DNA of 64,000 bases from Stramenopiles sp. TOSAG23-2. Lineage: Eukaryota. Positions within the stretch are counted from its first letter, which is position 1; each line of letters opens with the position of its first letter. The notes under the pieces were generated by a model that was not told the origin of the DNA, made no database searches, and saw only the letters and a list, made by a program, of their open reading frames with translations. Both the position numbers and the translations under genes were made by a program. The DNA is taken from the NCBI GenBank assembly GCA_900128395.1, contig LT649238.1, positions 1-64,000 on the forward strand. Direction: 5' to 3'. Shown piece by piece: positions 2,578-61,489 of the stretch.

Positions 2578-3636
2578 TTATGACGAACCCGAATTACCAC
2601 CACCACCACTTGCATCGCTTTTACTACTCCCACTACTTTTTCCTTTATGTTTTACATTATTATGTTTCCATATACTTAAACTTCCATCATAAGACGATGT
2701 TATATATGTATTTAAAGTTGGATGGCGATGTATACTTGATATAACATTTTGATGGCATTTCGTTGAATTGATTAATTTTGAACTTACAAGATCCCAAACA
2801 TATACACTACCATCTTCTGAAGTACCTACAACATTTTTATCATTTTTTGAAAAACAACTTTCTGATTTATATTTTGAATTTGTATGACCAGTGTATGTTG
2901 CTAACACATCCCCAGTTTCACGTTGTGTTACATTGATGGTATTATTTAAAGTAGACACTATTAGACATTCTTTATCTTGTGACAATCCAACATGACTTAT
3001 TATACTTTGAAAATGATCCTCAATTCTTTGACAATTTCTTATATCATATGTACGTAAAATTCCATCCACAGATGCAACATAAATTTGTGATTCATGTTTA
3101 CCATTGACACTCAATACGGCATCGGTTGCATCTTCTAATATTTGCCCTGGTCCCCTAATATTATTCATACGTACATCCCATAGACTGACAGTACGATCAT
3201 ATGAACCAGCAATTATTACATTATCATGTGGATTGAAATTAATTGAAGATATGGCAGCTTTATGAAACTTTAATCTACGTTTTAAATGACCTTTTCCCAC
3301 ATCAAAAATGAAAATATCTCTATCACCGCCAGCAGAAATTATTGTTGAATTGTCTTTTGTAATATCAACTGTTTGTACTGGGTATCCATGACCTTTAAAA
3401 GTATGTACATGTGCTGTTTCTTGATGAGGATGGTTATTATCGTTATTGTTACTAGCATATTTTTTCAATACATTTGCCCCAACGCTAATATATTTCCATA
3501 TATGTACATTTTTATCATCCCCTCCAGAAATAAAATGAGAACCATTTGAATTAAACCTCGCGCATAATACACTTTTCTTTTCATGCGCTTTTGAATTACT
3601 CCAATGTAGTCTTTGTACAATTTTTTTCTCAGTCAT
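2578..3636 (-). CDS. WDR83: WD40 repeat protein, WDR83/MORG1-like
   Basis: Seven WD40-like repeats (GH...WD/WK). SAGGDR, GSYDRTVSLWD and YTGHTN..YK.E segments resemble WDR83. Confidence 0.75.
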   Translation of the reverse strand: MTEKKIVQRLHWSNSKAHEKKSVLCARFNSNGSHFISGGDDKNVHIWKYISVGANVLKKYASNNNDNNHPHQETAHVHTFKGHGYPVQTVDITKDNSTIISAGGDRDIFIFDVGKGHLKRRLKFHKAAISSINFNPHDNVIIAGSYDRTVSLWDVRMNNIRGPGQILEDATDAVLSVNGKHESQIYVASVDGILRTYDIRNCQRIEDHFQSIISHVGLSQDKECLIVSTLNNTINVTQRETGDVLATYTGHTNSKYKSESCFSKNDKNVVGTSEDGSVYVWDLVSSKLINSTKCHQNVISSIHRHPTLNTYITSSYDGSLSIWKHNNVKHKGKSSGSSKSDASGGGGNSGSS

Positions 3637-7933: not shown

Positions 7934-9547
7934 ATGCATGGGAGGAAAGCATCAAATCCAGTACTTCGATTAAGAATAGAGGAAACGTCTGTTATTAAAA
8001 ATTTAAAAACTGATAATGTTAAAAATACACGACCATCGTCCAGGGGGATGATGGGTTTTCATAGTCCTAATAATAGATTTAGTCATGGTAATAATGGCGA
8101 TGATAAGATCATGCATAATGACAATTTCGGTCAAAAGGTGAAAGAATCACCTGCTGGATTACGCCTTCGTCTTGGAGCTAATATTGAAAAACTTCGTTCA
8201 CCATCTAGACTAAGAGTAGATTCAACACCTCGTTTTAAAAATAAAAACCTCACCTCACCATTTAGTTCACCATCTGGTAGAAGCACACCACCATCACCTT
8301 TAGCTTTGTCTGGTAGAAAAAGTTTATTTAATACTTCTACAAATTCCCCTGGAGGTGTGACATCAGATAATGGAGGTTCATCACCGGATTCAAATTATTC
8401 TGGACGCTCACCTAGTCCTTTGGGTAGTTTAACTTTGCAAAATAGTAATAATGATAATAATAATAACAACAACAACAACACAACTGCCAATACTACTCCA
8501 CGAAGTCGCACTGCTAGCATTGGCAATATATCATTGGAAACTGCTGAAAATGATTTATTAAATGGTAATAATAGTATTATTACATCGACGCCACGAAATA
8601 GTATATTGTCTACTGAAAATAGTCCTGGTGATTTTAATAATAACAACAATACTTCATTGTCTCCATCTCTTTCAATTCGTACAAATCGTTCATCAAGTAG
8701 TTCAACAAACTTCAACAATTTTAGTAATAATAATAATGATTCACCATCATCATCCTCATCATCATTATTAAGAAATATGACTTTAGATAATAATAATAAT
8801 AATAATACAAATAGTAATCGTAAGAAAATAAAAACTCATGATAACAACAATGATTCGAAACGCCGCAGTAGTCGTAGTAATTTACATAATAACAACAATA
8901 ATAATAATGATGTATCTCCAAAATGGTCACCAAAAAAGAAAGATGCTAATTGGCAAATGAAACATACGAATCAAAAATTGTTTTCAATACCTCTTACAAA
9001 ACAAAAAAAATCAGTCGTAGTTTTAACTAATAATAATAATAATGGAAGAAATAGAAAAAGCAAAATTGTAGTTGTAGATAAAAGAACTCCAAGAGAATCG
9101 ATTAATAACATTGTTAAATCAAAGCGTCGGTCTAGATATAATAAAAATTTAAAACATTTAAGAAAAGATTTAGATGTAAAGGCATATTTCAATGATAATG
9201 GAAATATCAATATGTTATCTCAATATGTAAAAAATGAAAGTTATTTAATAAATGATATAGTCGATGAATTTATTAATGATATTGATATGTTTCAACAAAA
9301 TATTGATAAAAGTCAAAAATATCTGTCAAAGATGGCAAAAAAAGTAGATCAAAGCAAATTAAGTTTAATTGGTCAACGTATGCAACAAATTAATAAAGAA
9401 GAAACTTATAAACGCCGAAGACAAGATTTAACAAATGATATTGAATTGCTATCTTTGCGTTCGGAACGATTGGAGATGGAATATACAAGTTTATTGAGAG
9501 CATTGGAACAACAACAGGCATTGTTGACAAAGTTATCATCAGAGTAA
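7934..9547 (+). CDS. Long disordered S/N-rich protein with C-terminal IFT20-like coiled coil
   Basis: The last ~110 aa (FINDIDMFQ...AKKVDQSKLSLIGQR...ERLEMEYTSLLRALEQQ) resemble IFT20. First ATG is at 7934. Confidence 0.65.
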   Translation: MHGRKASNPVLRLRIEETSVIKNLKTDNVKNTRPSSRGMMGFHSPNNRFSHGNNGDDKIMHNDNFGQKVKESPAGLRLRLGANIEKLRSPSRLRVDSTPRFKNKNLTSPFSSPSGRSTPPSPLALSGRKSLFNTSTNSPGGVTSDNGGSSPDSNYSGRSPSPLGSLTLQNSNNDNNNNNNNNTTANTTPRSRTASIGNISLETAENDLLNGNNSIITSTPRNSILSTENSPGDFNNNNNTSLSPSLSIRTNRSSSSSTNFNNFSNNNNDSPSSSSSSLLRNMTLDNNNNNNTNSNRKKIKTHDNNNDSKRRSSRSNLHNNNNNNNDVSPKWSPKKKDANWQMKHTNQKLFSIPLTKQKKSVVVLTNNNNNGRNRKSKIVVVDKRTPRESINNIVKSKRRSRYNKNLKHLRKDLDVKAYFNDNGNINMLSQYVKNESYLINDIVDEFINDIDMFQQNIDKSQKYLSKMAKKVDQSKLSLIGQRMQQINKEETYKRRRQDLTNDIELLSLRSERLEMEYTSLLRALEQQQALLTKLSSE

Positions 9548-9966
9548 ACATTTACACGCAGCACAGGAGTGATTCTTGGGTGTGCGTATTTTCGAAACGA
9601 ACGTAATTTCTTGTTTATTTTGAAGAAGGGGCGTATATGAAAATTAATACATCTTCTTGAGAGCATTATGATATATTTATTATGATAATGATATGATATA
9701 TGATAGAACTTCTCTGGACACCAGAGGCATTTTGGCCCAAATCGACGTTAACAACAAGCATTGTTGACAAAGTTATCATATCATTGGAGTACCCATAGAT
9801 AGTACCGAACGTAATTTCTTGTTTATTTTGAAGAAGGGGCATATATATTTTACGTAATATATTTGAAAGAAGGGGCGTATATGGAAATTAATACATCTTC
9901 TTGAGAGCATTATGATATATAATATAATGATATCTTCATCTCTCCCCCCTGCTGCTAGTACATGCA

Positions 9967-10389
9967 TTATCTTGACATGTGACCAATATCTGTCTCTGTA
10001 TAATGTGTCAAAACTTTTGATATAGCTTTCCCACCCGAAATTTTTGGATCATTGGACTCACGGTTTAGTTGTAATGTTTCTTGATGTATTCCATCTAAAT
10101 CAGCTTTCGATTTATAACGCTCAAATATAGACAATTTAGTATCATCCCCGTTATTTAATATTACTTTGTATGAAAAACAATTTGGTTCACGTGCATATAC
10201 TTTCTTTGTTAATGGTTTAAAATTTTTACAGAAAATAGACCTTTCTTTTTCATTTTCAAAACTCAAATCAACTTTCAAAACATGTATTCCTTCTACATTA
10301 TTTTTAGAAATTTTTTGTCGATTATAATAATATCCAATTCCAAACCCTAAAATACCACCCAATAAGAAATATATATTTTTATGTTCCAT
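9967..10389 (-). CDS. ABM (antibiotic biosynthesis monooxygenase)-like dimeric alpha/beta barrel protein with N-terminal TM anchor
   Basis: Hydrophobic FLLGGILGFGIGYYY. EPNCFSY...SIFERY....DL..IH pattern of ABM domains. Confidence 0.65.
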   Translation of the reverse strand: MEHKNIYFLLGGILGFGIGYYYNRQKISKNNVEGIHVLKVDLSFENEKERSIFCKNFKPLTKKVYAREPNCFSYKVILNNGDDTKLSIFERYKSKADLDGIHQETLQLNRESNDPKISGGKAISKVLTHYTETDIGHMSR

Positions 10390-11062
10390 TTGCTCCTTCT
10401 TGTTAGTTTCAACGATTTGTTCTTTATATATACACAAGATATGTGATCTAGCCCAGCTAGCATGATAGGTACATATAGATAAATAACATGGACTTAGACT
10501 ATTTTATGGATTAATTTTGTAAAATTATATATTATTGTTGCACGTAACATTCAACATATATTTGATAGATATATTCATCATCATCATCTTTTTCAGCATT
10601 TTTTCTATTTTAGAGTAAGGTATTTTACATTAAAAGAAGTAAAATTACAATATATTTATATATAAAAATAATGAAAGACACATCATTAATACCTTAAATG
10701 TATCAAGTTGTTGTACATGCTAATTGCTACCTTTTGCAACTTTTGACTGTACAGGTATCTAAAAAGGTGAGGAGAGCAATAATAAAAAAAGAAACAGCAG
10801 CTGTGTCGAAAAAGGGGGGGGGATTTTAGATTTTTTAGAAAAAATTTTCCCAGTCCAGGCAGTGTTAGTGTTAGGCAGATACATGTATCTTTTATTAATA
10901 AAAAACATAGTTAGTAAAGATTGTGATATAAATACGATATAGAGAGAGATTTTACAATAGTAACAAATTTAACAATAATTTGAAACGAAATAATAGAATA
11001 AGTTTTGAATCTTTGTTTGTATTGTATTTATTTTAATTCTTCTTTTGCAAGTTTAACTAACA

Positions 11063-13307
11063 ATGAAAGGAATAAGTTTATTTATAACATGTTTGTTGTT
11101 AATATCTGTTGTTCGTGGTGAAGACGCATTTAATTGTAAACTGGGTGAAGGTGTAACTAATTATGAAATATTAACATCTGGTCCTGCATCACAATGTAGT
11201 GGTAATTCTGAAATAACAAACATGTTTGTTGTTAATATCTGTTGTTCGTGGTGAAGACGCATTTAATTGTAAACTGGGTGAAGGTGTAACTAATTATGAA
11301 ATATTAACATCTGGTCCTGCATCACAATGTAGTGGTAATTCTGAAATAACAACATCAGCAGAATGTGTAGAAGCAGCTAAATATAATAGTAAGAATAATA
11401 TTGATGAAAATAGAGGATTTGGAGGCGCATACCATAGTAGTCATATGACCCATAGACCACCTGGATGTTTTTATGACACTCTTTGGAAGAAATATTATTT
11501 TTATCCCAACAAAAAATCAGACACAACTTGTGATCCTAAATATAGATGTATCTGCCAAAGAAAAGCATGTAGGAAATGCCCAATGAAGACATATAGTAAA
11601 GGTGGTGCCAATGCATTATGTATACCATGTAAAGCCGGCGAAGTAACTGATTCTAAACAAAGTAAATGTTTTGGTGTAAACGATTTATTTGAAGAAATTA
11701 AGAAAGACTTAACTGCACAAAAAGAAAAACAAAATGATTTATCTATTAAAAATTCACGTTTATGGCAAAAAGAACAAATTAGAATGCAACATGATGAATT
11801 ATTAGCAAGACGTAAAAATGCAGATAATGAAAAAGAAAAAGATTCTTGTGAAAAAGAACGAGAAGATGGTACAGTTATATTTCCTGCAATTGAAATATCA
11901 AGTGAAATAGAAAAAATCGAAGATACTACTTGTATCGATACAAATCGTGATGAAATGTTAAAATCATTTTGCTCGTTTACATCAGATTTAGATCGTTTGT
12001 TTCGAAACCAAGGAGTAAAAAATCAAACGTCGCAGCAATTCTGGCCAAATATATGTTGTAAAGAACGCAGGGATAAAATATTAGAAGCATGTGTAGATCC
12101 AACTGGTGAAATTAATCGTACAGATATAATACCATTTGCACTGTCGCAAGGTGGTGATTATAGTCGCCATAATTTATATGTTGAAGTTACTGATTCAATT
12201 AAAAAAGATGGTTACATAAATAGCGGCATGATAAAGTTAATCAAATCGTTGAAGCCGGAACGAAACGATCGTATCATCGAAAAAGTAAATTCGTTTTTTG
12301 ATGACATTTCATTATGCGGACCACGTATTGTCGATAGTCCTGGAGAAGAAAGTAAATTGTGCCAACTTTTCATACCATATCGTCATGCAATGAAAAACTT
12401 TTACAATGTAGTTGCGGAGTTGTTTGATAATATTATGAATGATGAAATGTTAGAAATAATGAAAAAATCTAATAAACCTTTAGTTGAAGAAAAACAACCA
12501 AAGAAATCAACTGGTGGCGCAGGAAATAGTGATACTCTTAATAGACCAACACAAGCGGCAGCACCAAATGTAGTGAAGGAAAAAAGAAAAAAGAGGAACG
12601 GAAAAAGAAAAAAGAGGAACCCAGCATTTTTAGAAACAATGGAAGGTTCATTGCGTAAACGTCAACTGGGGAAGAAAAATTCCATAAATGAGAAATACAA
12701 TATGCAAGAGGCTATAAAATTAAAACCAAAGCAAAAACAAGAACAACCAAAAGCGGAGAAACGATGTGAACACAAAGATAAGAAATTTAGTCAAAAAGAA
12801 TTAGCAACTATGAAGCCAAAATTCTGTTCAGGGTATAACCATTTAGATTTATCGAACAAAGAAATTAAAAATATTGCTATTCATTATTTAAACATTTCAA
12901 AAAGCGACAAAGACATGTCAAAGTTATCAAGAAACTTGTATTATGATGTTCAAGATGGCAATTGTCCTGCTGCACCGTTATTTACAGCGAAAGATGTTTC
13001 CATCCAACAAATTAGTATGGACACACTTGGTGAAAATAACGAATGGGTCGCAGTTGTTAAATTGAATACCGAAGATGAAAATAGTTATTTAAAAAGTGAA
13101 GTGCCAAATTGCTTACGTGCTGATTATTTAATTGGTGCAACCGTAAAAGTAAAGGCATATGTCGATGAAGAGAAACGCAAACCATTGAAAGATAGAGGTA
13201 AAGATTATTCAAAAGAGGTCATTTTGACAGGTACACACTATGAAGTGACGAGTTCAAATGTTGGAAGAAGGCGAAGGTTGTTAAAGACTCGCACAGGTGC
13301 ATGCTAA
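11063..13307 (+). CDS. Secreted Cys-rich protein (703 aa if one duplicate copy is removed), frameshifted in this assembly by a 133-bp tandem duplication
   Basis: Signal peptide in ORF 11063-11254 and the body in ORF 11226-13307. Removing one 133-bp copy gives a 2112-nt frame. Cys module, GCC2/3-like CxxC repeat, coiled coil, C-terminus RRRRLLKTRTGAC. Confidence 0.7.
11086..11351. repeat. Exact tandem duplication, 2 x 133 bp
   Basis: 11086-11218 is identical to 11219-11351. Confidence 0.95.
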
Positions 13308-32152: not shown

Positions 32153-33127
32153 ATGAACCGTTTATTATTACTAATTGTATTATCAGCAACATATGTTTTA
32201 GCAGTTGCTGCTACAAATGAAGTTATCGTAGAAAAACCAACACTTGTTGGGAGACTAAAAAACCACTTAAACTCTTTATTGAGCTTAGTAGAAACAAAGG
32301 AAGAAGGTGAGCCATCACCAGTCAAAGCCAAGTTTGATGCTATTTTGAATGCGCCAGAAAAACCTGGGCATGATGAAGCATTAGATGAGGAAGGAAAACC
32401 TGTCTTCAACGGTACGAAAAAAGTTGGATTCGACAAAGGGGAGTTGGATCCGTTGTTTGATGAAGTAGAAAATAAAACTAACGCTACACGTGTAGTAGCA
32501 GTAACATTTCATGGTCGTAAGCATAAGAAACCGAGAAAGACACCAACAGTAATAGAATTGAATACGCCGACATTATATAACGATCGTATTAATTACCGTA
32601 AAGCAAGAAAAGTTATGGCTGAAGTCATGTCGGAATATCCTGATAAACATAGAGAAGTAGAATTATCAACCCACGCACGTTGTGTAGATACTGATCCATA
32701 TTTTCCAGGTTGGAAAAATCCAACTGTCTTTACGAATCCTACACCAATGCGTAAATATGCAAGAAATGTTGCGGTAAAAATACATGAAAATACTGCAGCC
32801 AATGTTATGCACGAAGCTACAACAGTTATTACAGATACACCTGTCAACACAGAGGAGAATCTAAAACCAGCAGATCACTCAACTGAAGAAATAATTAGTG
32901 ACGGACAAACTCATCATACACTGAAGTCACCAAAAGAAGAAGAAACAATAATATCATTAGACAAAGGTATCAAAGAGATGGCAGAGATCATGAAAACCAA
33001 CGAAACGCTAGGCGCTGAAAATAATTTGAAGAAATTACAACAAGCAGAAAAAGATAGAGAGGCCAAAGAGGATGCAGAAGAAGAAGAGGAAGCTAAAGAT
33101 GATGAAAATCCTAAGGAGGCTCAATAA
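32153..33127 (+). CDS. Secreted hypothetical protein
   Basis: 324 aa, clear signal peptide (MNRLLLLIVLSATYVLAVAA), acidic C-terminus. No family recognised. Confidence 0.75.
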   Translation: MNRLLLLIVLSATYVLAVAATNEVIVEKPTLVGRLKNHLNSLLSLVETKEEGEPSPVKAKFDAILNAPEKPGHDEALDEEGKPVFNGTKKVGFDKGELDPLFDEVENKTNATRVVAVTFHGRKHKKPRKTPTVIELNTPTLYNDRINYRKARKVMAEVMSEYPDKHREVELSTHARCVDTDPYFPGWKNPTVFTNPTPMRKYARNVAVKIHENTAANVMHEATTVITDTPVNTEENLKPADHSTEEIISDGQTHHTLKSPKEEETIISLDKGIKEMAEIMKTNETLGAENNLKKLQQAEKDREAKEDAEEEEEAKDDENPKEAQ

Positions 33128-33241
33128 AAGTGTATGATACTCGCTAAAAATTAATTTTTATGATAATTTAAAAAAATATAAAGAAAAGTGATATTAATAT
33201 ATGATGTATCCATATATCTGGTAGTTTAAAATTTTGCAAAA

Positions 33242-33386
33242 TGTAGAAACGGTGCACAATATCTGTGCACCGATAACATTACCTTAAATGTAATTATATA
33301 ATAGGTTATAATATAGTACATATTTAAGGATAATAATATTACATGTATTTTGAGAACGTGAACAGATATTGTACACGGCATTTACA
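33242..33386. repeat. Degenerate foldback/MITE-like inverted repeat (145 bp)
   Basis: The left arm TGTAGAAACGGTGCACAATATCTGTGCAC matches the reverse complement of 33358-33386 at 23/29 positions. Inner CCTTAAAT...ATTTAAGG arms. No TSD seen. Confidence 0.55.
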
Positions 33387-33453
33387 CCGCACACAGCAGG
33401 TAAAAAAATCCTATATCGATAATCACTATGGCTGAAATAAGCCCTTTTTTTTA

Positions 33454-33661
33454 ACTATTTTTTCATGGCTTCACTCGGCCTCTAATCGGATCACTGGCCT
33501 TTTTACCCTGTAACTCGTACTAAAAGAATACTTGGTATGGTCCTATATATCCCCTTTACTATTTTTTCATGGCTTCACTCGGCCTCTAATCGGATCACTG
33601 GCCTTTTTACCCTGTAACTCGTACTAAAAGAATACTTGGTATGGTCCTATATATCCCCTTT
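33454..33661. repeat. Exact tandem duplication, 2 x 104 bp, just inside the left TIR
   Basis: 33454-33557 = 33558-33661. Confidence 0.95.
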
Positions 33662-33997
33662 AGTGCGCACCTGCTAATTTTCCCCCATGGGAATAGCATT
33701 GATGTCTTATACACATTTCCAGCAATTAAAAAATCTCATTTAGTATACAATCTACCTATCAAGAGAATACTACGTCAATCACGTCAGATATTTTTTTTGG
33801 CGAATGGGTTTTTTTTTTTGTAAATTCACAGAACCATTTCACACACATACATATTATAGTATTGTATTATTATATATACTATAGACTATTATAAAGTGTT
33901 GTAACACTGTTGATAATTTCCAAATTGATCTAAAGAATAATGCTAATAAAAGCAACGCATTCTATACTTTCAACAATTATTGCAAGTGTCTGCAAAA

Positions 33998-35008
33998 ATG
34001 GATACAAAGAAGACTCAATACAAGTTGATTGACACAACAGTACCTGTTCCATCGCTTCCAACTCAAAAACTAAATGGTGGATCATATGATGATGACGAAG
34101 CATGCAAAACATTTACCTGGAAAAATGCTAACAATGAAGCATATGGAGGGACTGGGGGAATACTAATAGCATATTCCCACACGATTCGAAATAATATTAC
34201 TACATACTTTTTCTACTCAAATCAAAATGCTAACAATGAAGCATATGGAGGGACTGGGGGAATACTAATAGCATATTCCCACACGATTCGAAATAATATT
34301 ACTACATACTTTTTCTACTCAAATCAAATATCCAGTGCAGTGTATGAATATGTTACGAAGAAATGTAAATCTACAATAAAGACAGAATTATCCGGTATGA
34401 ATAGTAAGACAGTAATTAGGATTGAAGAAGTAAAACTTGCCCGAAGTCATAAATATTGTGATTCAAACGATTGTTTTCATGCAATTGAAAAAGGTGTGAA
34501 GTGGTGTGTCTCATGTCGAGGCTTTTTAGACGCTTTTGCAAAGCAGAAAGAAGAGAACGAAAATGAGAGAAATAAACGAAAATTAGACGAGGCAGATCTA
34601 CAAAGACAAATGCAGAATTTAAAGCTGAAACATAATAGAAATAATGAAGACGCTAGAAATATCAATGCTGAAGCTCAAAGTGTAATTACTGATAGCAAGA
34701 AGAAAATCGAAGAACTTCAAACTCAATTGAAACAACTATCTGAACAAGTAGATACAAATGTTAAAGCACTAATCGAAAAAAATAAAAGTGTCCAGACGCT
34801 AACAGAAACGAATAGGGTTCAAGCAGTACAGGTAGAAACGTTGGAAGAAGACAATGCGCAGCAACAAGTGAAAAATATTGATGCACAGGTTGCAATTGCA
34901 GCCATAAAAAGCTTGGTATTGGAGTATCGTAAGGAAAAAGACGAACATGATATACTCTCTTCAATTTATTCAATTTATTGTCCATTATTATTATTAAAGC
35001 AATATTAG
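33998..35008 (+). CDS. Transposon-borne hypothetical protein: Cys/His cluster plus long coiled coil
   Basis: First ATG at 33998. HKYCDSNDCFH...WCVSC, then a heptad-rich region. No DDE motif recognised. Contains an in-frame 102-bp duplication. Confidence 0.6.
   Translation: MDTKKTQYKLIDTTVPVPSLPTQKLNGGSYDDDEACKTFTWKNANNEAYGGTGGILIAYSHTIRNNITTYFFYSNQNANNEAYGGTGGILIAYSHTIRNNITTYFFYSNQISSAVYEYVTKKCKSTIKTELSGMNSKTVIRIEEVKLARSHKYCDSNDCFHAIEKGVKWCVSCRGFLDAFAKQKEENENERNKRKLDEADLQRQMQNLKLKHNRNNEDARNINAEAQSVITDSKKKIEELQTQLKQLSEQVDTNVKALIEKNKSVQTLTETNRVQAVQVETLEEDNAQQQVKNIDAQVAIAAIKSLVLEYRKEKDEHDILSSIYSIYCPLLLLKQY
34122..34325. repeat. Exact tandem duplication, 2 x 102 bp (34 aa, in frame)
   Basis: 34122-34223 = 34224-34325. 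Confidence 0.95.
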
Positions 35009-35629
35009 TAGCAGAATAATAATAATTATTATTAATAATATTGATGATGATTATCTATTATGTATATATTGTTTATTAATGATAATATATTAATGATAAT
35101 ATTACAATACTTGTGATCTTTTATAAAACTTTTCTAACGTAGGTGTATCTATAATAATAATAGCGTATCTATAATAATAATAGCGTATCTATAATAATAA
35201 TAATCACACTCCCTTTGCAAAAAAACATCCTCATTGATGTGTCACCTGCATAAGTCTGTTGTTGTAAATTTCATGAAAGACCCCATGCTAATTGCGGAAC
35301 TAGGGACAAAGCTTGGTATCGTACTAAAACACTATAAAACCATTAATGCAAAAACTTTAGCCATATCAAAAAGTTCCAGAGGATTTTCAATTAGCATGGC
35401 GCACGCCTGATAGTGTTAGGCTCAGGGTTAAAACGAGAAAAAAAATAGATGAAAAAAAAGGGCTTATTTCAGCCATAGTGATAATAATCAAAATATTATT
35501 ATATCAATTAAGGCAGAGTATTTACATTAAGTCTCATGTTATAACAAAAAATGCATTATTAACAACATATCTTTATAGGCATACATATATAACTGTTTTG
35601 CATCGGGGATATAGATTGATAAATTACAC

Positions 35630-36487
35630 ATGTTTAATAAAAACATAATCATGTCAGATAATAATGCGGTGCCACCAATACAACCAGTAAAACTATTTGC
35701 TGAATGGGCTATGACGCATTTATTTAAACCTAATTATGGAGAAATGTTATTAAAAAAAGGTATTCTTGTTATTGATGATTTTCTTAGTCACGAAGAAGTA
35801 CTGATATGTAGGCACGAATTACAACGCTTAGACTTTGCACCCACGAGGCAACCAAAAACAATACGAACCGATAATATAACGTGGATTCATGAAAACCAAA
35901 ATTTCAATTCAGTAAATAATGATGATAAATCATTTTTACCAGAACTTGTAAGAAAAATAAAGGCAATTGGCTGCATGTTTGAAAATGTCTTAGGTAAACT
36001 AGAAGCTCCGTCTCGATGTATGGTCTCTATGTATAAAAATATAAATATCATTACTGAACAGGATAATAATAACGATGATAACAATGAAAAAATAATAAAT
36101 GAAATGACTACAGGAAACTTGAGAAATAATGGTTATAGGGCTCATTTAGATTGTAGCCCACCAAAAGATGATGATTTATATTGGCTCTGGAAAAGTAGTC
36201 GAGAAACATCAGAGAGAAAATTAACTTCCATTTTATATCTTAATGATGAATGGACGGAGCAGGATGGTGGTAAATTGCGTTGTTATATTGGATGTGAACG
36301 TGGTGATAGTAATGGTCAAACAGCAAAAGAAACGATTGATATAGAGCCAAAAGCGGGGCGGTTGGTTTTATTTCTATCTAAAAAAATTCCTCATGAAGTC
36401 TTGCCAATAACATCTTCCAATAATTCAACTCCAAGAATGGCAATGAGTTGTTGGTTTATTCAATCAGAAGATAATGAAATTTCATGA
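35630..36487 (+). CDS. 2OG-Fe(II) oxygenase, EGLN/PHD-type prolyl hydroxylase-like
   Basis: IRTDNITW, YRAHLD (HxD), RKLTSILYLN..W...DGGKLR, IEPKAGRLVLF, PHEV, RMAMSCW. Confidence 0.85.
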   Translation: MFNKNIIMSDNNAVPPIQPVKLFAEWAMTHLFKPNYGEMLLKKGILVIDDFLSHEEVLICRHELQRLDFAPTRQPKTIRTDNITWIHENQNFNSVNNDDKSFLPELVRKIKAIGCMFENVLGKLEAPSRCMVSMYKNINIITEQDNNNDDNNEKIINEMTTGNLRNNGYRAHLDCSPPKDDDLYWLWKSSRETSERKLTSILYLNDEWTEQDGGKLRCYIGCERGDSNGQTAKETIDIEPKAGRLVLFLSKKIPHEVLPITSSNNSTPRMAMSCWFIQSEDNEIS

Positions 36488-36799: not shown

Positions 36800-37019
36800 A
36801 CACTAGTGTGAGATAGATTATTTCAGTTATTGTATTCTTTTGAAGAGTAGGAATTATCATGAGTAATATTAAAACAATATTAAATTATGCGTATAAATTA
36901 TTATCATATACACTAGTGTGAGATAGATTATTTCAGTTATTGTATTCTTTTGAAGAGTAGGAATTATCATGAGTAATATTAAAACAATATTAAATTATGC
37001 GTATAAATTATTATCATAT
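36800..37019. repeat. Exact tandem duplication, 2 x 110 bp
   Basis: 36800-36909 = 36910-37019. Confidence 0.95.
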
Positions 37020-43999: not shown

Positions 44000-44129
44000 C
44001 CGACGTACGACCAAATAAGGCCTGGTGGGCTAACACCGGTCAAATGCTATTGGCACAGAGCACACCGACGTACGACCAAATAAGGCCTGGTGGGCTAACA
44101 CCGGTCAAATGCTATTGGCACAGAGCACA
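44000..44129. repeat. Exact tandem duplication, 2 x 65 bp
   Basis: 44000-44064 = 44065-44129. Confidence 0.95.
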
Positions 44130-52900: not shown

Positions 52901-53268
52901 GATATAGTTGTTGTTAACTTACAAAGTTGTTGAGGTTATATACTACTTTTCCTCAAATAAAAAATCGTTGATCAACTTTTATCCATTGCACTACTTTCCA
53001 AAAAGGTGCAAAGGTAAATGATGTATTTTGTTCGATGATCTTTTGTTGAATTATAAATGAGGAGATGTTGTGGGAAGTATGTCGTTGAATGGAGATTTTA
53101 CAACAAATATGTGTTTTATATATTTGGAGGGAAAAATTTAGGACTTATTCCTTATCCCCACACTTTTTGTGCCGCCTCCAGAAATTTTAAAATATAGGAC
53201 TTTTTAAGGAATTCACTCAAATAAGGGCAATTAATATTTAGAAAACTGTATACTTTAAGTACCAACAA

Positions 53269-53334
53269 TTATTCCTTATCCCCACACTTTTTGTGCCGCC
53301 TCCAGAAATTTTAAAATATAGGACTTTTTAAGGA
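53269..53334. repeat. Direct duplication of the first 66 bp of the left TIR
   Basis: Identical to 53145-53210. Confidence 0.9.
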
Positions 53335-53710
53335 TTTTGACCTCTATTTTACATAGAGTCAATATATTATACATATAAATAGCAAAGGATGCATAGTAAG
53401 GGAATAGCATAAGAAAGGTAAGTTCAATGTGCCCTGAAATGTAATGCTATATGCATACTATCGAACTAATATAGACACAGCACTAATGCCAATTGAACCA
53501 ACTAAAGTAATAATCTATGTATGTATGGTTGCGCACTTTTTTGATAGAGGCAGCAAAAAACACCAGTAAGTAAAGGTTTTTGTAGTTGTGCCTATCAGAA
53601 AAAAAAGTGGATTTCAACTTCAATGGCATACTATTGGTTTCAAAAAAAAAGGGGTGTTTAAATTTCACAGTTTTCTGGTCTTAGAATAAGAGATCTGTAC
53701 TTCAGGTCTG

Positions 53711-53858
53711 TTTTCTTAGGAAGAAAGTCTACTATACTATTAACAGTATACTATTAACACACGAGCCCACGGAACATGGAACGATTTTCTTAGGAAGAAA
53801 GTCTACTATACTATTAACAGTATACTATTAACACACGAGCCCACGGAACATGGAACGA
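53711..53858. repeat. Exact tandem duplication, 2 x 74 bp
   Basis: 53711-53784 = 53785-53858. Confidence 0.95.
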
Positions 53859-55027
53859 TACACTCTCACATACGATATCAGTATACACCTCGATATATAT
53901 AAAAATAATAATAATTTATTGATTAGTATATTGTTTTTTAATAATAATAATAATTAATGTAATTTATGATACCCACCAACTCCAGATCTTAGAGTAAAAT
54001 TTATAACATACAATCGCCGTGTCCCTGTATGCCCATACCATTTATGTAGGTGTAATGGTGCATGTGTTGTTGTGGATGCTGATACAGTACTTGTGGGTGG
54101 CTGTGGTGGTGGTTCCGTTGACGTTGTTGTTGTGTTGGATGTAGCATTGGTTTGCATTGTTGTTGTTGTTGTAGTGTTGGACATGTTTGCTGGAGATGTT
54201 CTGGTGTTGTTGAGCTACAGGTTGTAGAGTTATGGAACAATGTCTATATAATATTTATTTATTATATATATATATATGCATACACAATAGATAGATTTAT
54301 GCATTATTTGTGCGGATTTATGCAGTGAGAGATTAAATGCATGAATTTGTAGTGCTGATACATAGAGGATCATAGAATTGTTGGTACTTAAAGTATACAG
54401 TTTTCTAAATATTAATTGCCCTTATTTGAGTGAATTCCTTAAAAAGTCCTATATTTTAAAATTTTTGGAGGCGGCACAAAAAGTGTGGGGATAAGGAATA
54501 GCTCAAAATTTAGAGCGGATCCTCTCTAGAAAAATTGGCCGTGCCAAAGGCGTGCAAATTGTGAATTGGTGTGCCATTTGTGAATTTTATTAGGCGGAGT
54601 GCCAGAGAGCAGCTATTTTTTCCACAATAGTGAACAGTGTTATTCTATGCGTCAAATTATAGATCAAACCTCACTCATAGATTTTTGATTTACAAAACAA
54701 AAATTACTTTAACTTCCGAGTAAGAACGACATTAAAATGAATAAAGAATGTTTATACAATATATATATATATATATATAAAACAACATATTGTTTCAATA
54801 TATATATATATATTAAATATATCATCATATTGTTTCAATATAATATAATATTTATTTACGACATTCTTAATATATAATATACATAATATTTTAAATTAAT
54901 AATAATAATTTTGTTACATTAGTAAGGACAAAACAAAAAAAACAAACGCCCTTTCTTCATAATATATACATATATATATTTAAATAAACAGTTCCCGCGC
55001 GCTAATTACGATTTAGTTTATACAACT

Positions 55028-57580: not shown

Positions 57581-60500
57581 TTATAAACGTTTAGGAACTA
57601 TAACTGGCCTTCCTGTTGGTGTTCCAGAACATCCCCCACAACAATCTCCTACACTCGGATTAGGTGGTACTCTTTTCTGACCAAGACGACATATTGGACG
57701 GGCACACCTTACACTTCTACAATCCATAACTGGCTCTTCTATTGGTGCTATTGGTGTTCCAGAACATCCCTCACAACATCTTCCTACACTTGGATTAGGT
57801 GGTACTCTTTTCTGACCAGGACGACATATTGCAAGGCCACACATTACAAGATGACAACGGTCTGGTGTTGGTACTTCTGGTTCTTCATGTACTTCTGGTT
57901 CTTCAGGTACTCCTGGTTCTTCAGGTACTTCTGGTTCTTCAAGCAAGCAATAAATAGAGCTCCCAACTAGTTTGTAATTATCTTCCTGTTCATGTGGCTC
58001 ATGTTCTTCCTCTTCTTCGTCGTTTTCATGATCCTCCTGTTCATTATCACCATGCAAATCACAATCTTGCTGAACTTTTTCTAATTGTTCGCTGGATACT
58101 CCCTCTCCCTGCAAATATTGTTCAATGTCAGTTTCACTGGCATCAGGATGTTTTTCCACCATTTCTTTTAAAAGTTTGCATGCCTTATCACTATCAAAAT
58201 CACTCTCATCTTCTTCTTCTTCCTCCTCCTTCTCTTCTTCTTCTTCTTCTTCTTCTTCGATTTCCTCCTCCTTCTGTTCTTCTTCTTCTTCGATTTCCTC
58301 CTCTTCTTCTTGTTTATCTTCTTGTTCATCTTCTTGTTCCTCCTCTTTTTCCTCTTCCTCCTCTTGTTCCTTGTATTCATCGTCTTCCTGCCCGTAATCT
58401 CCTTCACCCTCTCCAATTTTTTTACACCTTGCACAACATTTACCCCTTTCTGGTTTTGCATCTATTAGTTTTTCCCCGGCTTTGCAATTTGGTTCGGCGC
58501 ACAGCACACTTTTGCATTTCTCTGAGAGTGGTAGGCAACTTTTTGGTTTGTGCATACCACATTTCTTTGTATTACGCAGTATATATCCAGTTTCCTCTGT
58601 GCAATCATTGCCCTTCACTCCATCTACTAGAGTACAAAACTTCATAGTGCATCTATCTCCACATTTTTTACTTGGATCGAAATCAATTTTCTGTACAAGT
58701 TTTAACCTGCATTTTTGTAGAAATTTTTCAATTCTACTTTCATCAAAATGAAATTCCTCGCTTAAATGTTTTCTCACTTCATTTGGTGTTGCCTCCGGGT
58801 GTGTCTTTAACAATTCTCTCGTCTTCTTACACGCTCGAAGCCGTGGTACATGTTCCTCCTCTTTTTCCTCTTCCTCCTCTTGTTCCTTGTATTCATCGTC
58901 TTCCTGCCCGTAATCTCCTTCACCCTCTCCAATTTTTTTACACCTTGCACAACATTTACCCCTTTCTGGTTTTGCATCTATTAGTTTTTCCCCGGCTTTG
59001 CAATTTGGTTCGGCGCACAGCACACTTTTGCATTTCTCTGAGAGTGGTAGGCAACTTTTTGGTTTGTGCATACCACATTTCTTTGTATTACGCAGTATAT
59101 ATCCAGTTTCCTCTGTGCAATCATTGCCCTTCACTCCATCTACTAGAGTACAAAACTTCATAGTGCATCTATCTCCACATTTTTTACTTGGATCGAAATC
59201 AATTTTCTGTACAAGTTTTAACCTGCATTTTTGTAGAAATTTTTCAATTCTACTTTCATCAAAATGAAATTCCTCGCTTAAATGTTTTCTCACTTCATTT
59301 GGTGTTGCCTCCGGGTGTGTCTTTAACAATTCTCTCGTCTTCTTACACGCTTGAAGCCGTGGTACACAAACATGTACAGGTGGGCATTTACCTGGCATAA
59401 CAGCTGGTTGGTTGTGAGTGTCTCCATATGGATCCCGGTTATACCCTTGTAACTGGTCTTCGTAGCTTTGTACGTGTGTTTCGTACCCTTCTTGTTCTTC
59501 CGTTGGTTCTTCGATACATTTTCCATTATGACATCCATTTTTACAGTGCATAATTGCGCAAAGATTGGATCCAGATGATGGCACAAAACCAGGCATTGGT
59601 TGTTTAAAACCAAAACCTGGTTGTGCTTGTCCATAAGATGGCGGCATTGGTTGTGCTTGTCCATAAGATGGCGCAAGATCAGGTTGGGTTGGTCGTTGTG
59701 CAGGTTGGGGTGGTGCTTGTGGTTGTTCTGATTTTTTTGATTTTTTTTTTGATTTTTTTGATTTTTTTGATTTGGGCGAAGTTACTTTTGTCACGAGTTT
59801 GTCCACGAGACCGCCCACTAGACCTGTCACTTTTGGCACAACACTTTGACCAATAGATGAAAGCATTTTGCCAAAAAATCGCGATTTATCTTTCGCTAAC
59901 AATTGTCTTCTACCCAATAATCTTCTTCTTGATGTATGCGCGCCACCTTGAACTATAGACCCACCTAGACCACCTTGAACTATAGAAGCGTGAGCTTCAT
60001 TATTTAAAACACGCCGCATTCCTCTTGGGCATTTTGTCACAGACTTTGGACAACCTGGGATTCCTTCTCTTGCTTTTCTTCTTTCTTCTCTCTTCTTCTT
60101 TTTGTCCTTTCTTTTTTTTCTCTTTTCTTCTCTTTGTTTTTTCTTCTCTTTCTTCCTATTTCTCGATTTCTTTCTTTCTTCTTTATTCTTCTTTTTGTCC
60201 TTTCTTTTTCTTCTCTTTTCCTTCTTCTTCTTCTTCAATTTCTTTCGTTCCTCTTTATTCTTCTTTTTGTCCTTTCTTTTTCTTCTCTTTTCCTTCTTCT
60301 TCTTCTTCAATTTCTTTCGTTCCTCTTTATTCTTCTTTTTGTCCTTTCTTTTTCTTCTCTTTTCCTTCTTCTTCTTCTTCAATTTCTTTCGTTCCTCTTT
60401 ATTCTTCTTTTTGTCCTTTCTTTTTCTTCTCTTTTCCTTCTTCTTCTTCTTCAATTTCTTTCGTTCCTCTTTCTTTTCCTTCCTCTTCTTTTTTAATTTC

Positions 60501-61489
60501 TTTCTTTCTTCTTTCATAATCTTCCTTTTGTTCTTCAATTTTTTTCGTTCCTCTTTCTTTCGCTTTTTTTGTGACTTTTTGCGTGATCTTCGCCTTGGGC
60601 GCGGTCTCTTCCTTTGTTTCACCTTTTTTCGACTTTTTTGTGACTTTTTGCGTGATCTTGGCCTTGGGCGCGGTCTCTTCCTTTGTTTCACCTGTCTTCG
60701 ACTTTTTTGTGACTTTTTGCGTGATCTTGGCCTTGGGCGCGGTCTCTTCCTTTGTTTCACCTGTCTTGGTCTTGGTCTTGGTCTCGGTCTCGGTCTCGGC
60801 CTTGGGCGTGGTCTTGGTCTTGGTCTTGGTCTTGGTCTTGGTCTTGGTCTCGGCCTTGGGCGTGGTCTTGGTCTTGGTCTCGGTCTTGGCCTTCGGCGCG
60901 GTCTTGGCCTTGGTCTCGGTCTCGGTCTTGGCCTTCGGCGCGGTCTCGCTGCTTTCCTTCGTCGCTTCTTCTTCTGTCCTTTCAACAAGGTTCTTGCATT
61001 TTCCATCATATCTAAAAATGAGGAAGCACTGTTTGCATTTTTGCATAACGGACTGCATTCTCTCGATGTTTTGCTACCGACACACTCACTCACTTTAGCT
61101 GATAATTCACTGTTGCTTTTTGAAATCGACAATTTCCTAAAAGTTCCCTTGTCACCACATTGTAGTTCAAAACCACACGGATATTTTAAGCAACCACCTT
61201 CGTTTTTTTCATCGTTATTCAAAAAAGAACATCCAGTTGGTGGAGGCAAACATTTATAAATTTTGCAATTAGGTTTGCCACCAGGTTTTTTCTTGTTCAT
61301 TATAGCATTCATATTCTTACGCGATAGAAGTTGAGATGTTTGGGATGTTTTACCAACATATATACCAGCTCGTTTGCCAAGCATCTCGGTGACTGCTTCG
61401 CCATTTCCTTCCACAATGGTTGCAAACAAACTGCAAGTTATAATAAATAGAGAAAGACTCCAAATAACTGTTGTTACAGTGGACTTCAT
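57581..61489 (-). CDS. Secreted 1302-aa repeat protein: poly-(Arg-Pro), Lys-rich, Glu-rich and Cys-rich modules
   Basis: Signal peptide, uninterrupted ORF. About 30 RP dipeptides, 23-aa and 24-aa basic repeats, RRRLLGRRQLL, a duplicated 172-aa block, poly-E, and C..V.C....C..G......CC..C modules. Confidence 0.8.
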   Translation of the reverse strand: MKSTVTTVIWSLSLFIITCSLFATIVEGNGEAVTEMLGKRAGIYVGKTSQTSQLLSRKNMNAIMNKKKPGGKPNCKIYKCLPPPTGCSFLNNDEKNEGGCLKYPCGFELQCGDKGTFRKLSISKSNSELSAKVSECVGSKTSRECSPLCKNANSASSFLDMMENARTLLKGQKKKRRRKAARPRRRPRPRPRPRPRPRRRPRPRPRPRPRPRPRPRPRPRPRPRPRPRPRPRPRPRPRPRPRQVKQRKRPRPRPRSRKKSQKSRRQVKQRKRPRPRPRSRKKSQKSRKKVKQRKRPRPRRRSRKKSQKKRKKEERKKLKNKRKIMKEERKKLKKKRKEKKEERKKLKKKKKEKRRKRKDKKKNKEERKKLKKKKKEKRRKRKDKKKNKEERKKLKKKKKEKRRKRKDKKKNKEERKKLKKKKKEKRRKRKDKKKNKEERKKSRNRKKEKKKQREEKRKKRKDKKKKREERRKAREGIPGCPKSVTKCPRGMRRVLNNEAHASIVQGGLGGSIVQGGAHTSRRRLLGRRQLLAKDKSRFFGKMLSSIGQSVVPKVTGLVGGLVDKLVTKVTSPKSKKSKKSKKKSKKSEQPQAPPQPAQRPTQPDLAPSYGQAQPMPPSYGQAQPGFGFKQPMPGFVPSSGSNLCAIMHCKNGCHNGKCIEEPTEEQEGYETHVQSYEDQLQGYNRDPYGDTHNQPAVMPGKCPPVHVCVPRLQACKKTRELLKTHPEATPNEVRKHLSEEFHFDESRIEKFLQKCRLKLVQKIDFDPSKKCGDRCTMKFCTLVDGVKGNDCTEETGYILRNTKKCGMHKPKSCLPLSEKCKSVLCAEPNCKAGEKLIDAKPERGKCCARCKKIGEGEGDYGQEDDEYKEQEEEEEKEEEHVPRLRACKKTRELLKTHPEATPNEVRKHLSEEFHFDESRIEKFLQKCRLKLVQKIDFDPSKKCGDRCTMKFCTLVDGVKGNDCTEETGYILRNTKKCGMHKPKSCLPLSEKCKSVLCAEPNCKAGEKLIDAKPERGKCCARCKKIGEGEGDYGQEDDEYKEQEEEEEKEEEQEDEQEDKQEEEEEIEEEEEQKEEEIEEEEEEEEEKEEEEEEDESDFDSDKACKLLKEMVEKHPDASETDIEQYLQGEGVSSEQLEKVQQDCDLHGDNEQEDHENDEEEEEHEPHEQEDNYKLVGSSIYCLLEEPEVPEEPGVPEEPEVHEEPEVPTPDRCHLVMCGLAICRPGQKRVPPNPSVGRCCEGCSGTPIAPIEEPVMDCRSVRCARPICRLGQKRVPPNPSVGDCCGGCSGTPTGRPVIVPKRL
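58335..59366. repeat. Tandem duplication, 2 x 516 bp (172 aa, in frame)
   Basis: 58335-58850 vs 58851-59366. The one difference I noticed is ACGCTCGAAG vs ACGCTTGAAG (R/Q). Confidence 0.92.
60181..60470. repeat. 72-bp coding minisatellite, about 4 copies (KEERKKLKKKKKEKRRKRKDKKKN)
   Basis: Period of 72 nt is visible in both DNA and protein. Confidence 0.9.

Follow-up and report, generated by a model that had tools for sequence, protein, structure and literature searches.

The stretch analysed here (the window) comprises 64,000 nucleotides of Stramenopiles sp. TOSAG23-2 (contig LT649238.1, positions 1 to 64,000), and at 33424-35480 it holds a segment bounded by perfect terminal inverted repeats (TIRs) that has the features of a DNA transposon. 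The GC content of the window is 26-40%, and according to the Pfam search and the list of open reading frames (ORFs) it is dense in long unbroken ORFs for eukaryotic housekeeping proteins, the products of which include gamma-tubulin complex, Rubicon/RUN/PX, polycystin channel, Rad21, IFT20, thiolase and DEAD helicase proteins. An earlier reading of the same letters (the initial annotation) had spoken of a protist-like genome, a fair description of DNA that is AT-rich, gene-dense and filled with eukaryotic housekeeping ORFs. The element is located between a 324-amino-acid (aa) ORF (32153-33127) and a gene for a 2-oxoglutarate (2OG)-Fe(II) oxygenase (35630-36487), in a spacer that measures approximately 440 bp once the element is subtracted, which is typical for the window.

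The left TIR (33424-33452) is the exact reverse complement of the right TIR (35452-35480) over 29 of 29 bases, CACTATGGCTGAAATAAGCCCTTTTTTTT, and the perfect 29-bp repeats starting with CACTATG that had been described before were thus seen again. Imperfect complementarity extends to about 40 bp (45 nt pair at 87% when the flanks are included). With a slash marking the boundary of the element, the left junction reads ...TATCGATAAT/CACTATGGCTGAAATAAGCCCTTTTTTTT... at 33424 and the right junction reads ...AAAAAAAAGGGCTTATTTCAGCCATAGTG/ATAATAATC..., the last base of the element being 35480. When up to three mismatches were allowed, the first 21 bases of the TIR had no match in the 64 kb other than the two TIRs, and none of 100 dinucleotide shuffles contained a match. 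The TIR hairpin (GGCT...AGCC) was not unusual (z = -0.89). Immediately outside the TIRs, ATAAT is found at both 33419-33423 and 35481-35485, a 5-bp repeat that fits a target-site duplication (TSD). As the initial annotation had read, the flanks also fit 2 bp (AT/AT), and they fit neither 3 bp (AAT vs ATA) nor 4 bp (TAAT vs ATAA). Flanking repeats of the 9-bp type made by Mutator-like elements (MULEs) and of the 8-bp hAT type were absent at this copy.

The demonstration that this segment belongs to a family came from an exact scan with the TIR 21-mer over viral, genome and metagenome contig collections. The scan gave four further loci in metagenome contigs (L001-L004) and no match in viral or genome contigs, and a scan with the left flank likewise found no match in genome or viral contigs. 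Three full copies with both flanks could be compared (window, L002 and L003), and eight ends from five loci could be aligned. In all eight, the 26 columns that start at CAC are invariant (CACTATGGCTGAAATAAGCCCTTTTT), in inverted orientation at the two ends of an element, and the columns beyond position 26 are not conserved. The bases just outside this terminus vary from end to end, which places the boundary of the element exactly at CAC. Inwards, the termini are followed by a T run whose length varies and then by one or two inward-facing copies of TTTCATCTA at 27-80 bp from the ends. The conserved arms of the family span about 130-500 bp and are approximately 94-98% identical between copies, with unrelated interiors between them. 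The neighbouring genes differ at each locus (2OG oxygenase in the window; PIG-U with phosphatidylserine decarboxylase, ankyrin, and sulfate permease with GxGYxYP at the others), every insertion is intergenic and the flanks of the loci have no mutual similarity. Synteny between L003 and the window had been suspected from similar ORF sizes and was ruled out by BLASTP, which found no similarity. The absence of any change in the 8 x 26 terminal bases indicates that the copies are young. The claim of a recently mobile TIR DNA transposon is therefore well founded, with the same 26-bp end present at eight ends of five loci that have different neighbours. Neither the window nor the metagenome loci yielded a further inverted-repeat element with CAC...GTG ends. 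A TIR 11-mer occurs in 14 papers, of which the 10 listed were of primer type and, judged from the listing, without relation to transposons. At L001, a small inverted repeat (3110-3211; 29-nt arms, 93% identity, 44 nt apart) shares its long spacer with the truncated copy, and it may be another miniature element.

Between the arms, the interior differs from copy to copy. In the window it carries an orphan ORF of 336 aa, most of which lies within the copy-specific interior (33895-34951) and which is oriented like the neighbouring genes. It had no Pfam family above the cut-off, its best Atlas score was 0.82, under the lead level, and the one relative found, P0001, is a gene model that comes from this very locus; a search for relatives of greater length gave none. 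The AlphaFold2 model of the ORF consists of a single helix (model residues 80-236), with a predicted local distance difference test (pLDDT) score below 50 for model residues 1-91. The interior of L003 (281 bp) encodes instead a 95-aa ORF on the other strand, to which the 181-aa protein P0002, known from other contigs, is 73% identical. A full HMMER search with P0002 returned one true relative, P0003, identical to the L003 ORF; three other matches were repeat or low-complexity proteins and were taken as spurious. Another family variant carries P0002 in its entirety, and residues 138-175 of P0002 match window positions 34064-33951 (minus strand) at 84%, where a remnant of its 3' end persists. 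The window ORF, the L003 ORF and P0002 together give at least three interior variants. The names Pack-MULE and Pack-CACTA are used for non-autonomous transposons that carry cargo. The present family resembles them in having conserved ends and swappable interiors with ORFs unrelated to transposition, and it differs from them in that a parent gene in the host could be found for neither cargo ORF. The public gene model P0001 (405 aa; 34388-36487) joins the C-terminal half of the element ORF to the 2OG-Fe(II) oxygenase gene across the right TIR, a fusion that is probably a mis-prediction caused by the insertion of the element.

None of the ORFs scanned encodes a recognisable transposase. The Pfam scan covered 27 of the 35 window ORFs of at least 150 aa (the eight others are 9967-10437 and frames that are antisense or overlapping within other genes and repeats), 11 ORFs of the metagenome loci and the cargo ORFs of the element itself, and no transposase domain was found in any of these sets. 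Neither a RAG1-like nor a CACTA/Mirage/Chapaev (CMC) transposase was seen among them, the 336-aa ORF is not a transposase, and Rfam had no match in 33000-36000. The lack of a transposase in the element and in the scanned loci indicates that the element is non-autonomous. The family shows the features of a non-autonomous TIR transposon, namely exact termini shared at unrelated sites, variable interiors and no transposase.

The best explanation is that 33424-35480 is one copy of a family of non-autonomous cut-and-paste DNA transposons with 5'-CAC...GTG-3' ends that belongs to the CACTA/EnSpm-Mirage-Chapaev-Transib ('CMCT') group, a reading to which a probability of about 0.8 can be given. The placement follows from the 5'-CAC...GTG-3' ends together with a short TSD of 2 or 5 bp, and it fits whichever branch of the group holds, Transib (5 bp) or the 2-bp lineage of CMC. 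The CMCT lineages (CACTA, Mirage, Chapaev and Transib) are described as sharing CA..TG termini and making TSDs of 2-5 bp (PMC12730594). The termini, the multiple locations, the variable interiors and the lack of a transposase in the sequence covered are observed directly; from them we infer mobilisation in trans, the class of the transposase and the length of the TSD. In such a scheme, a transposase encoded elsewhere would bind the 26-bp termini and the subterminal motifs, excision would cut exactly outside CAC...GTG, and reinsertion would proceed with a short staggered cut of 2 or 5 bp. Deletion and filler synthesis in the course of gap repair could account for the diversity of the interiors, as could capture.

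Several observations weigh against this assignment. Only three full copies are at hand and their flanks disagree, with ATAAT/ATAAT in the window, CA/CA in L002 and no repeat in L003. The L003 copy is aberrant under both the 2-bp and the 5-bp readings, and its flanks imply that the site was rearranged, that the copy went into another repeat or that the metagenome contig is chimeric. No autonomous copy, transposase or empty site was seen in the sequence covered, and the assignment to the group draws on the terminal bases and the range of TSD lengths. Finally, two probable join artefacts lie inside the element, and the continuity from the left flank through the element to the right flank depends on the assembly.

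The length of the TSD separates the two branches of the group. Across the three full copies, a TSD of 5 bp fits one (the window copy), 2 bp fits two, and 3 bp and 4 bp fit none. The initial annotation had proposed that the TSD lengths of other copies be tabulated, and a 5-bp TSD was found in neither of the two other full copies. It had also named short TSDs in other copies and a link to a CACTA transposase as the signs of a different origin; the first was found, as a 2-bp TSD in one other copy (L002), and the second was not. The insertion site in the window is itself ambiguous. The right flank, ATAATAATC, is a period-3 (ATA)n tract, in which a 2-bp and a 5-bp duplication look alike, and the case shows that a superfamily cannot be assigned from one copy whose '5-bp TSD' lies in a trinucleotide tract. 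Matches between unrelated flanks occur at 0.25% of window positions for 5 bp and at 8.2% for 2 bp, and a 2-bp duplication mimics a 5-bp one at 1.7% of window positions, i.e. in period-3 tracts. By these chance rates the two readings are about equal unless disruption of flanks is assumed to be rare or common; overall, there is a slight lean towards the 2-bp reading.

An element of the 2-bp-TSD lineage of CACTA/Mirage/Chapaev, in which ATAAT is a 2-bp AT duplication lying within the (ATA)n tract, is the leading candidate, although its likelihood stays somewhat below an even chance. The 2-bp repeat is exact in two of the three full copies (AT/AT and CA/CA), and L003 is one base off a match (AA vs AC). 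The element starts with CACTA and has inward-facing subterminal repeats, which are typical of CACTA elements. The CAC...GTG termini that characterise CMC elements are present at eight of eight ends. [quoted passage not shown] However, two matches of 2 bp carry little weight when 8.2% of unrelated flank pairs match by chance, and the 2-bp reading requires the 1.7% coincidence at the window site. The family also departs from CMC elements, which make TSDs of 2-4 bp, in that the canonical 3-bp TSD of CACTA fits none of the three copies, the window copy fits 5 bp equally well and no CMC transposase is linked to the element in the ORFs scanned.

The initial annotation had favoured mobilisation by a Transib or RAG1-like transposase with 5-bp TSDs. 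Under that reading ATAAT is the true TSD, and L002 and L003 have flanks that were changed or wrongly assembled, a combination that is possible but has the odds against it. Two premises of the claim are borne out by the sources: CACTATG is the TR1 heptamer of ProtoRAG (PMC8289069), and 5-bp TSDs are a hallmark of Transib and RAG elements (PMC1131882). The heptamer is present at eight of eight ends and matches the Transib consensus CACAATG at six of seven positions (PMC1131882), the 5-bp match in the window would arise in only 0.25% of unrelated flanks, and a single extra base in the L002 right flank would complete a 5-bp CAACA duplication. Moreover, AAAACAAAA occupies positions 30-38 in three of the eight ends, where the Transib consensus has AAAAAAATC (PMC1131882), and a RAG-like element has already been reported from the marine protist Aureococcus (PMC10462144, citing Tao et al. 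2022). Against this, the 5-bp TSD is missing from the two other full copies, and the window site is the period-3 tract in which a 2-bp TSD passes for one of 5 bp at 1.7% of sites. The ATAAT target is AT-rich, whereas Transib is stated to prefer GC-rich targets even in AT-rich genomes (PMC1131882); the flanks (ATAAT, CAACA/CACAC and TTCAA/ACTTC) show no such preference, a weak indication with three sites only. The region past position 26 is unconserved, and the A-rich nonamer-like block, expected about 22-23 bp after the heptamer, is absent from both window ends and from two others, a shifted version (AAATAAAAA) being present in one end; in addition, a GC content of 31% leads one to expect A-rich runs in any case. 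Among the window and locus ORFs scanned, no RAG1-like gene was seen.

Compared with the non-autonomous Transib families (TransibN) and ProtoRAG, the family is alike in its 5'-CAC...GTG-3' ends, in the heptamer, in being a transposase-less derivative and in the possible 5-bp TSD of the window copy. It is unlike them in that this TSD fits one of three full copies at an AT-rich target, in having no conserved nonamer-like block at a fixed distance, in the lack of a linked RAG1-like or RAG2-like gene, and in the symmetric 26-29-bp TIRs of the window copy, which show no 12/23-like asymmetry. The earlier claim of recent mobilisation by a Transib/RAG1-like transposase encoded elsewhere therefore stands as to the recent movement; the class of the enzyme was not supported by the TSDs of the other copies, the AT-rich target or the ends of the window copy, which lack the nonamer-like block. 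The two branches also predict different empty alleles, namely ...TATCGATAATAATC under a 5-bp TSD and ...TATCGATAATAATAATC under a 2-bp TSD. An empty allele reading ...CGATAATAATAATC would contradict the Transib reading and one reading ...CGATAATAATC would contradict the 2-bp reading. Marine and seawater metagenome sequencing runs share 0.37-0.56 of the words from 32400-36400, shares that do not bear on whether an empty allele exists.

An unlikely third explanation is a TIR transposon from some other superfamily, or from one not yet described, whose target duplication varies or is absent, the flank matches then being coincidental. The three full copies do give three answers (5 or 2 bp, 2 bp and 0 bp) and no transposase is known for the family, but the window's 5-bp match, which has a chance of 0.25%, and the 2-bp match in L002 would be improbable together without duplication, and the 9-bp repeats of MULEs and the 8-bp repeats of hAT are absent. 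The hAT superfamily, including hAT5 with its 5-bp TSDs and its YARNG-type end, is ruled out by the third terminal base, which is C at eight of eight ends and is stated to be always G in hAT (PMC1131882). That the segment is not mobile, and is instead an artefact of the assembly, an inverted repeat formed by chance or an invertible segment that surrounds a host gene, is highly improbable: the assembly does contain overlap-join duplications, two of them within the element, and the element ORF is oriented like the neighbouring genes, but four other loci, each assembled independently, carry the same ends around different interiors and within unrelated flanks, and no shuffle out of 100 reproduced a TIR match.

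As it stands, this small family in a compact protist genome, made up of DNA transposons that lack a transposase and have exact ends around swappable interiors, is of an ordinary kind. It would gain a wider meaning if, in a marine protist that is widespread, it were the non-autonomous partner to an active transposase of the Transib or RAG-like type, with a heptamer identical to that of amphioxus ProtoRAG, which is rather doubtful. In that case, a young and probably active RAG-type system would join the single protist case cited, that of Aureococcus (PMC10462144), and RAG-type transposition would be present in a second, independent lineage of marine protists. The copies of the family would be young enough for the active enzyme and its substrates to be recovered, and the finding would bear on the age and spread of the ancestors of V(D)J recombination. 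The earlier remark that such elements are rarely reported outside animals needs to be softened, given the RAG-like element of Aureococcus and the Transib elements in bacteria that are cited in PMC10462144 (to Tao et al. 2022).

The features of the element, its other copies and the perfect duplications of the window are collected in Table 1.

Table 1. Features of the window copy, perfect duplications in the window, and copies of the family at other loci (L001-L004, positions on their own contigs).
Feature	Position	Strand	Basis or remark
Left flank ATAAT, candidate 5-bp TSD; last 2 bp (AT) alternative 2-bp TSD	33419-33423		Read directly
Left TIR, 29 bp, starts CACTATG; first 26 bp invariant at eight ends	33424-33452	+	Alignment
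Left conserved arm	33424-33894	+	97.7% to L003 9375-9716; 94% to L002 1386-1509 (BLASTN)
Perfect duplication, 104 bp x2	33454-33662		Inside left arm; overlap-join artefact probable
Copy-specific interior (cargo)	33895-34951		281 unrelated bases in L003 instead
Antisense ORF, 60 aa	33930-34112	-	Remnant of 3' end of 181-aa ORF P0002
Orphan ORF, 336 aa (302 aa if 102-bp duplication artefactual)	33998-35008	+	Cys/His-rich stretch, then long predicted helix; no family
Perfect duplication, 102 bp x2	34122-34328		In frame within 336-aa ORF; overlap-join artefact probable
Right conserved arm	34952-35480	+	93.6% to L003 9998-10474 (BLASTN)
Subterminal motif TTTCATCTA, inward-facing	35446-35454	-	In L002 and L003, one or two copies at each end, 27-80 bp from it
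Right TIR, 29 bp	35452-35480	-	Reverse complement match
Right flank ATAAT, candidate TSD, continuing as ATAATAATC	35481-35485		Read directly
All perfect 2.0-copy duplications in the window	11086-11352, 33454-33662, 34122-34328, 36800-37019, 44000-44129, 53711-53859		
Flanks of window copy: left ...CGATAAT, right ATAATAATC...			Fits 5 bp or 2 bp
L002, full 579-bp copy; left ...TCAACAACA, right CACACAATAAC...	1006-1584	Inverted vs window	Fits only 2 bp (CA/CA); at 5 bp CAACA vs CACAC
L003, full 1212-bp copy; left ...CATTCTTCAA, right ACTTCCTTCA...	9318-10529		Fits none: AA vs AC; at 5 bp TTCAA vs ACTTC
L001, one end and 70 bp, then unrelated sequence			
L004, one end			Contig starts inside element

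The quality of the assembly affects the length of the element. Six perfect tandem duplications, each of exactly 2.0 copies, 65-133 bp long and 100% identical, are spread across the window, a pattern expected from contig overlaps that were joined without merging. Two of them, of 104 bp and 102 bp, lie inside the element and are probably overlap-join artefacts, as judged from the sequence; the region of the 104-bp duplication is single in L002 and L003, both of the other copies that hold it (BLASTN). If both are artefacts, the true element probably measures about 1851 bp and its ORF 302 aa. The coordinates behind the length of 2067 bp given previously, which included the flanking repeats, were confirmed, and the length itself is likely inflated by the two duplications. 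Some of the six duplications fall in ORFs and would insert spurious residues into gene models.

Two further features of the window were noted. At 53142-54504 there is a second, unrelated TIR element with inverted repeats of about 136 nt at 96% identity (53135-53270 and 54376-54511), part of the left repeat being duplicated (53270-53337). The 9-mer AAAATTTAG occurs at 53133-53141 and 54505-54513, where it directly borders a 4-base extension of the repeats that matches by half. With its long TIRs and 9-bp TSD, this element looks like a non-autonomous MULE, and none of the ORFs near it has a Pfam transposase. On the minus strand, 57581-61489 encodes a 1302-aa ORF that consists mostly of 69-144-bp tandem repeats and low-complexity runs, its sole Pfam match being a weak one to Trypan_PARP, below the cut-off.

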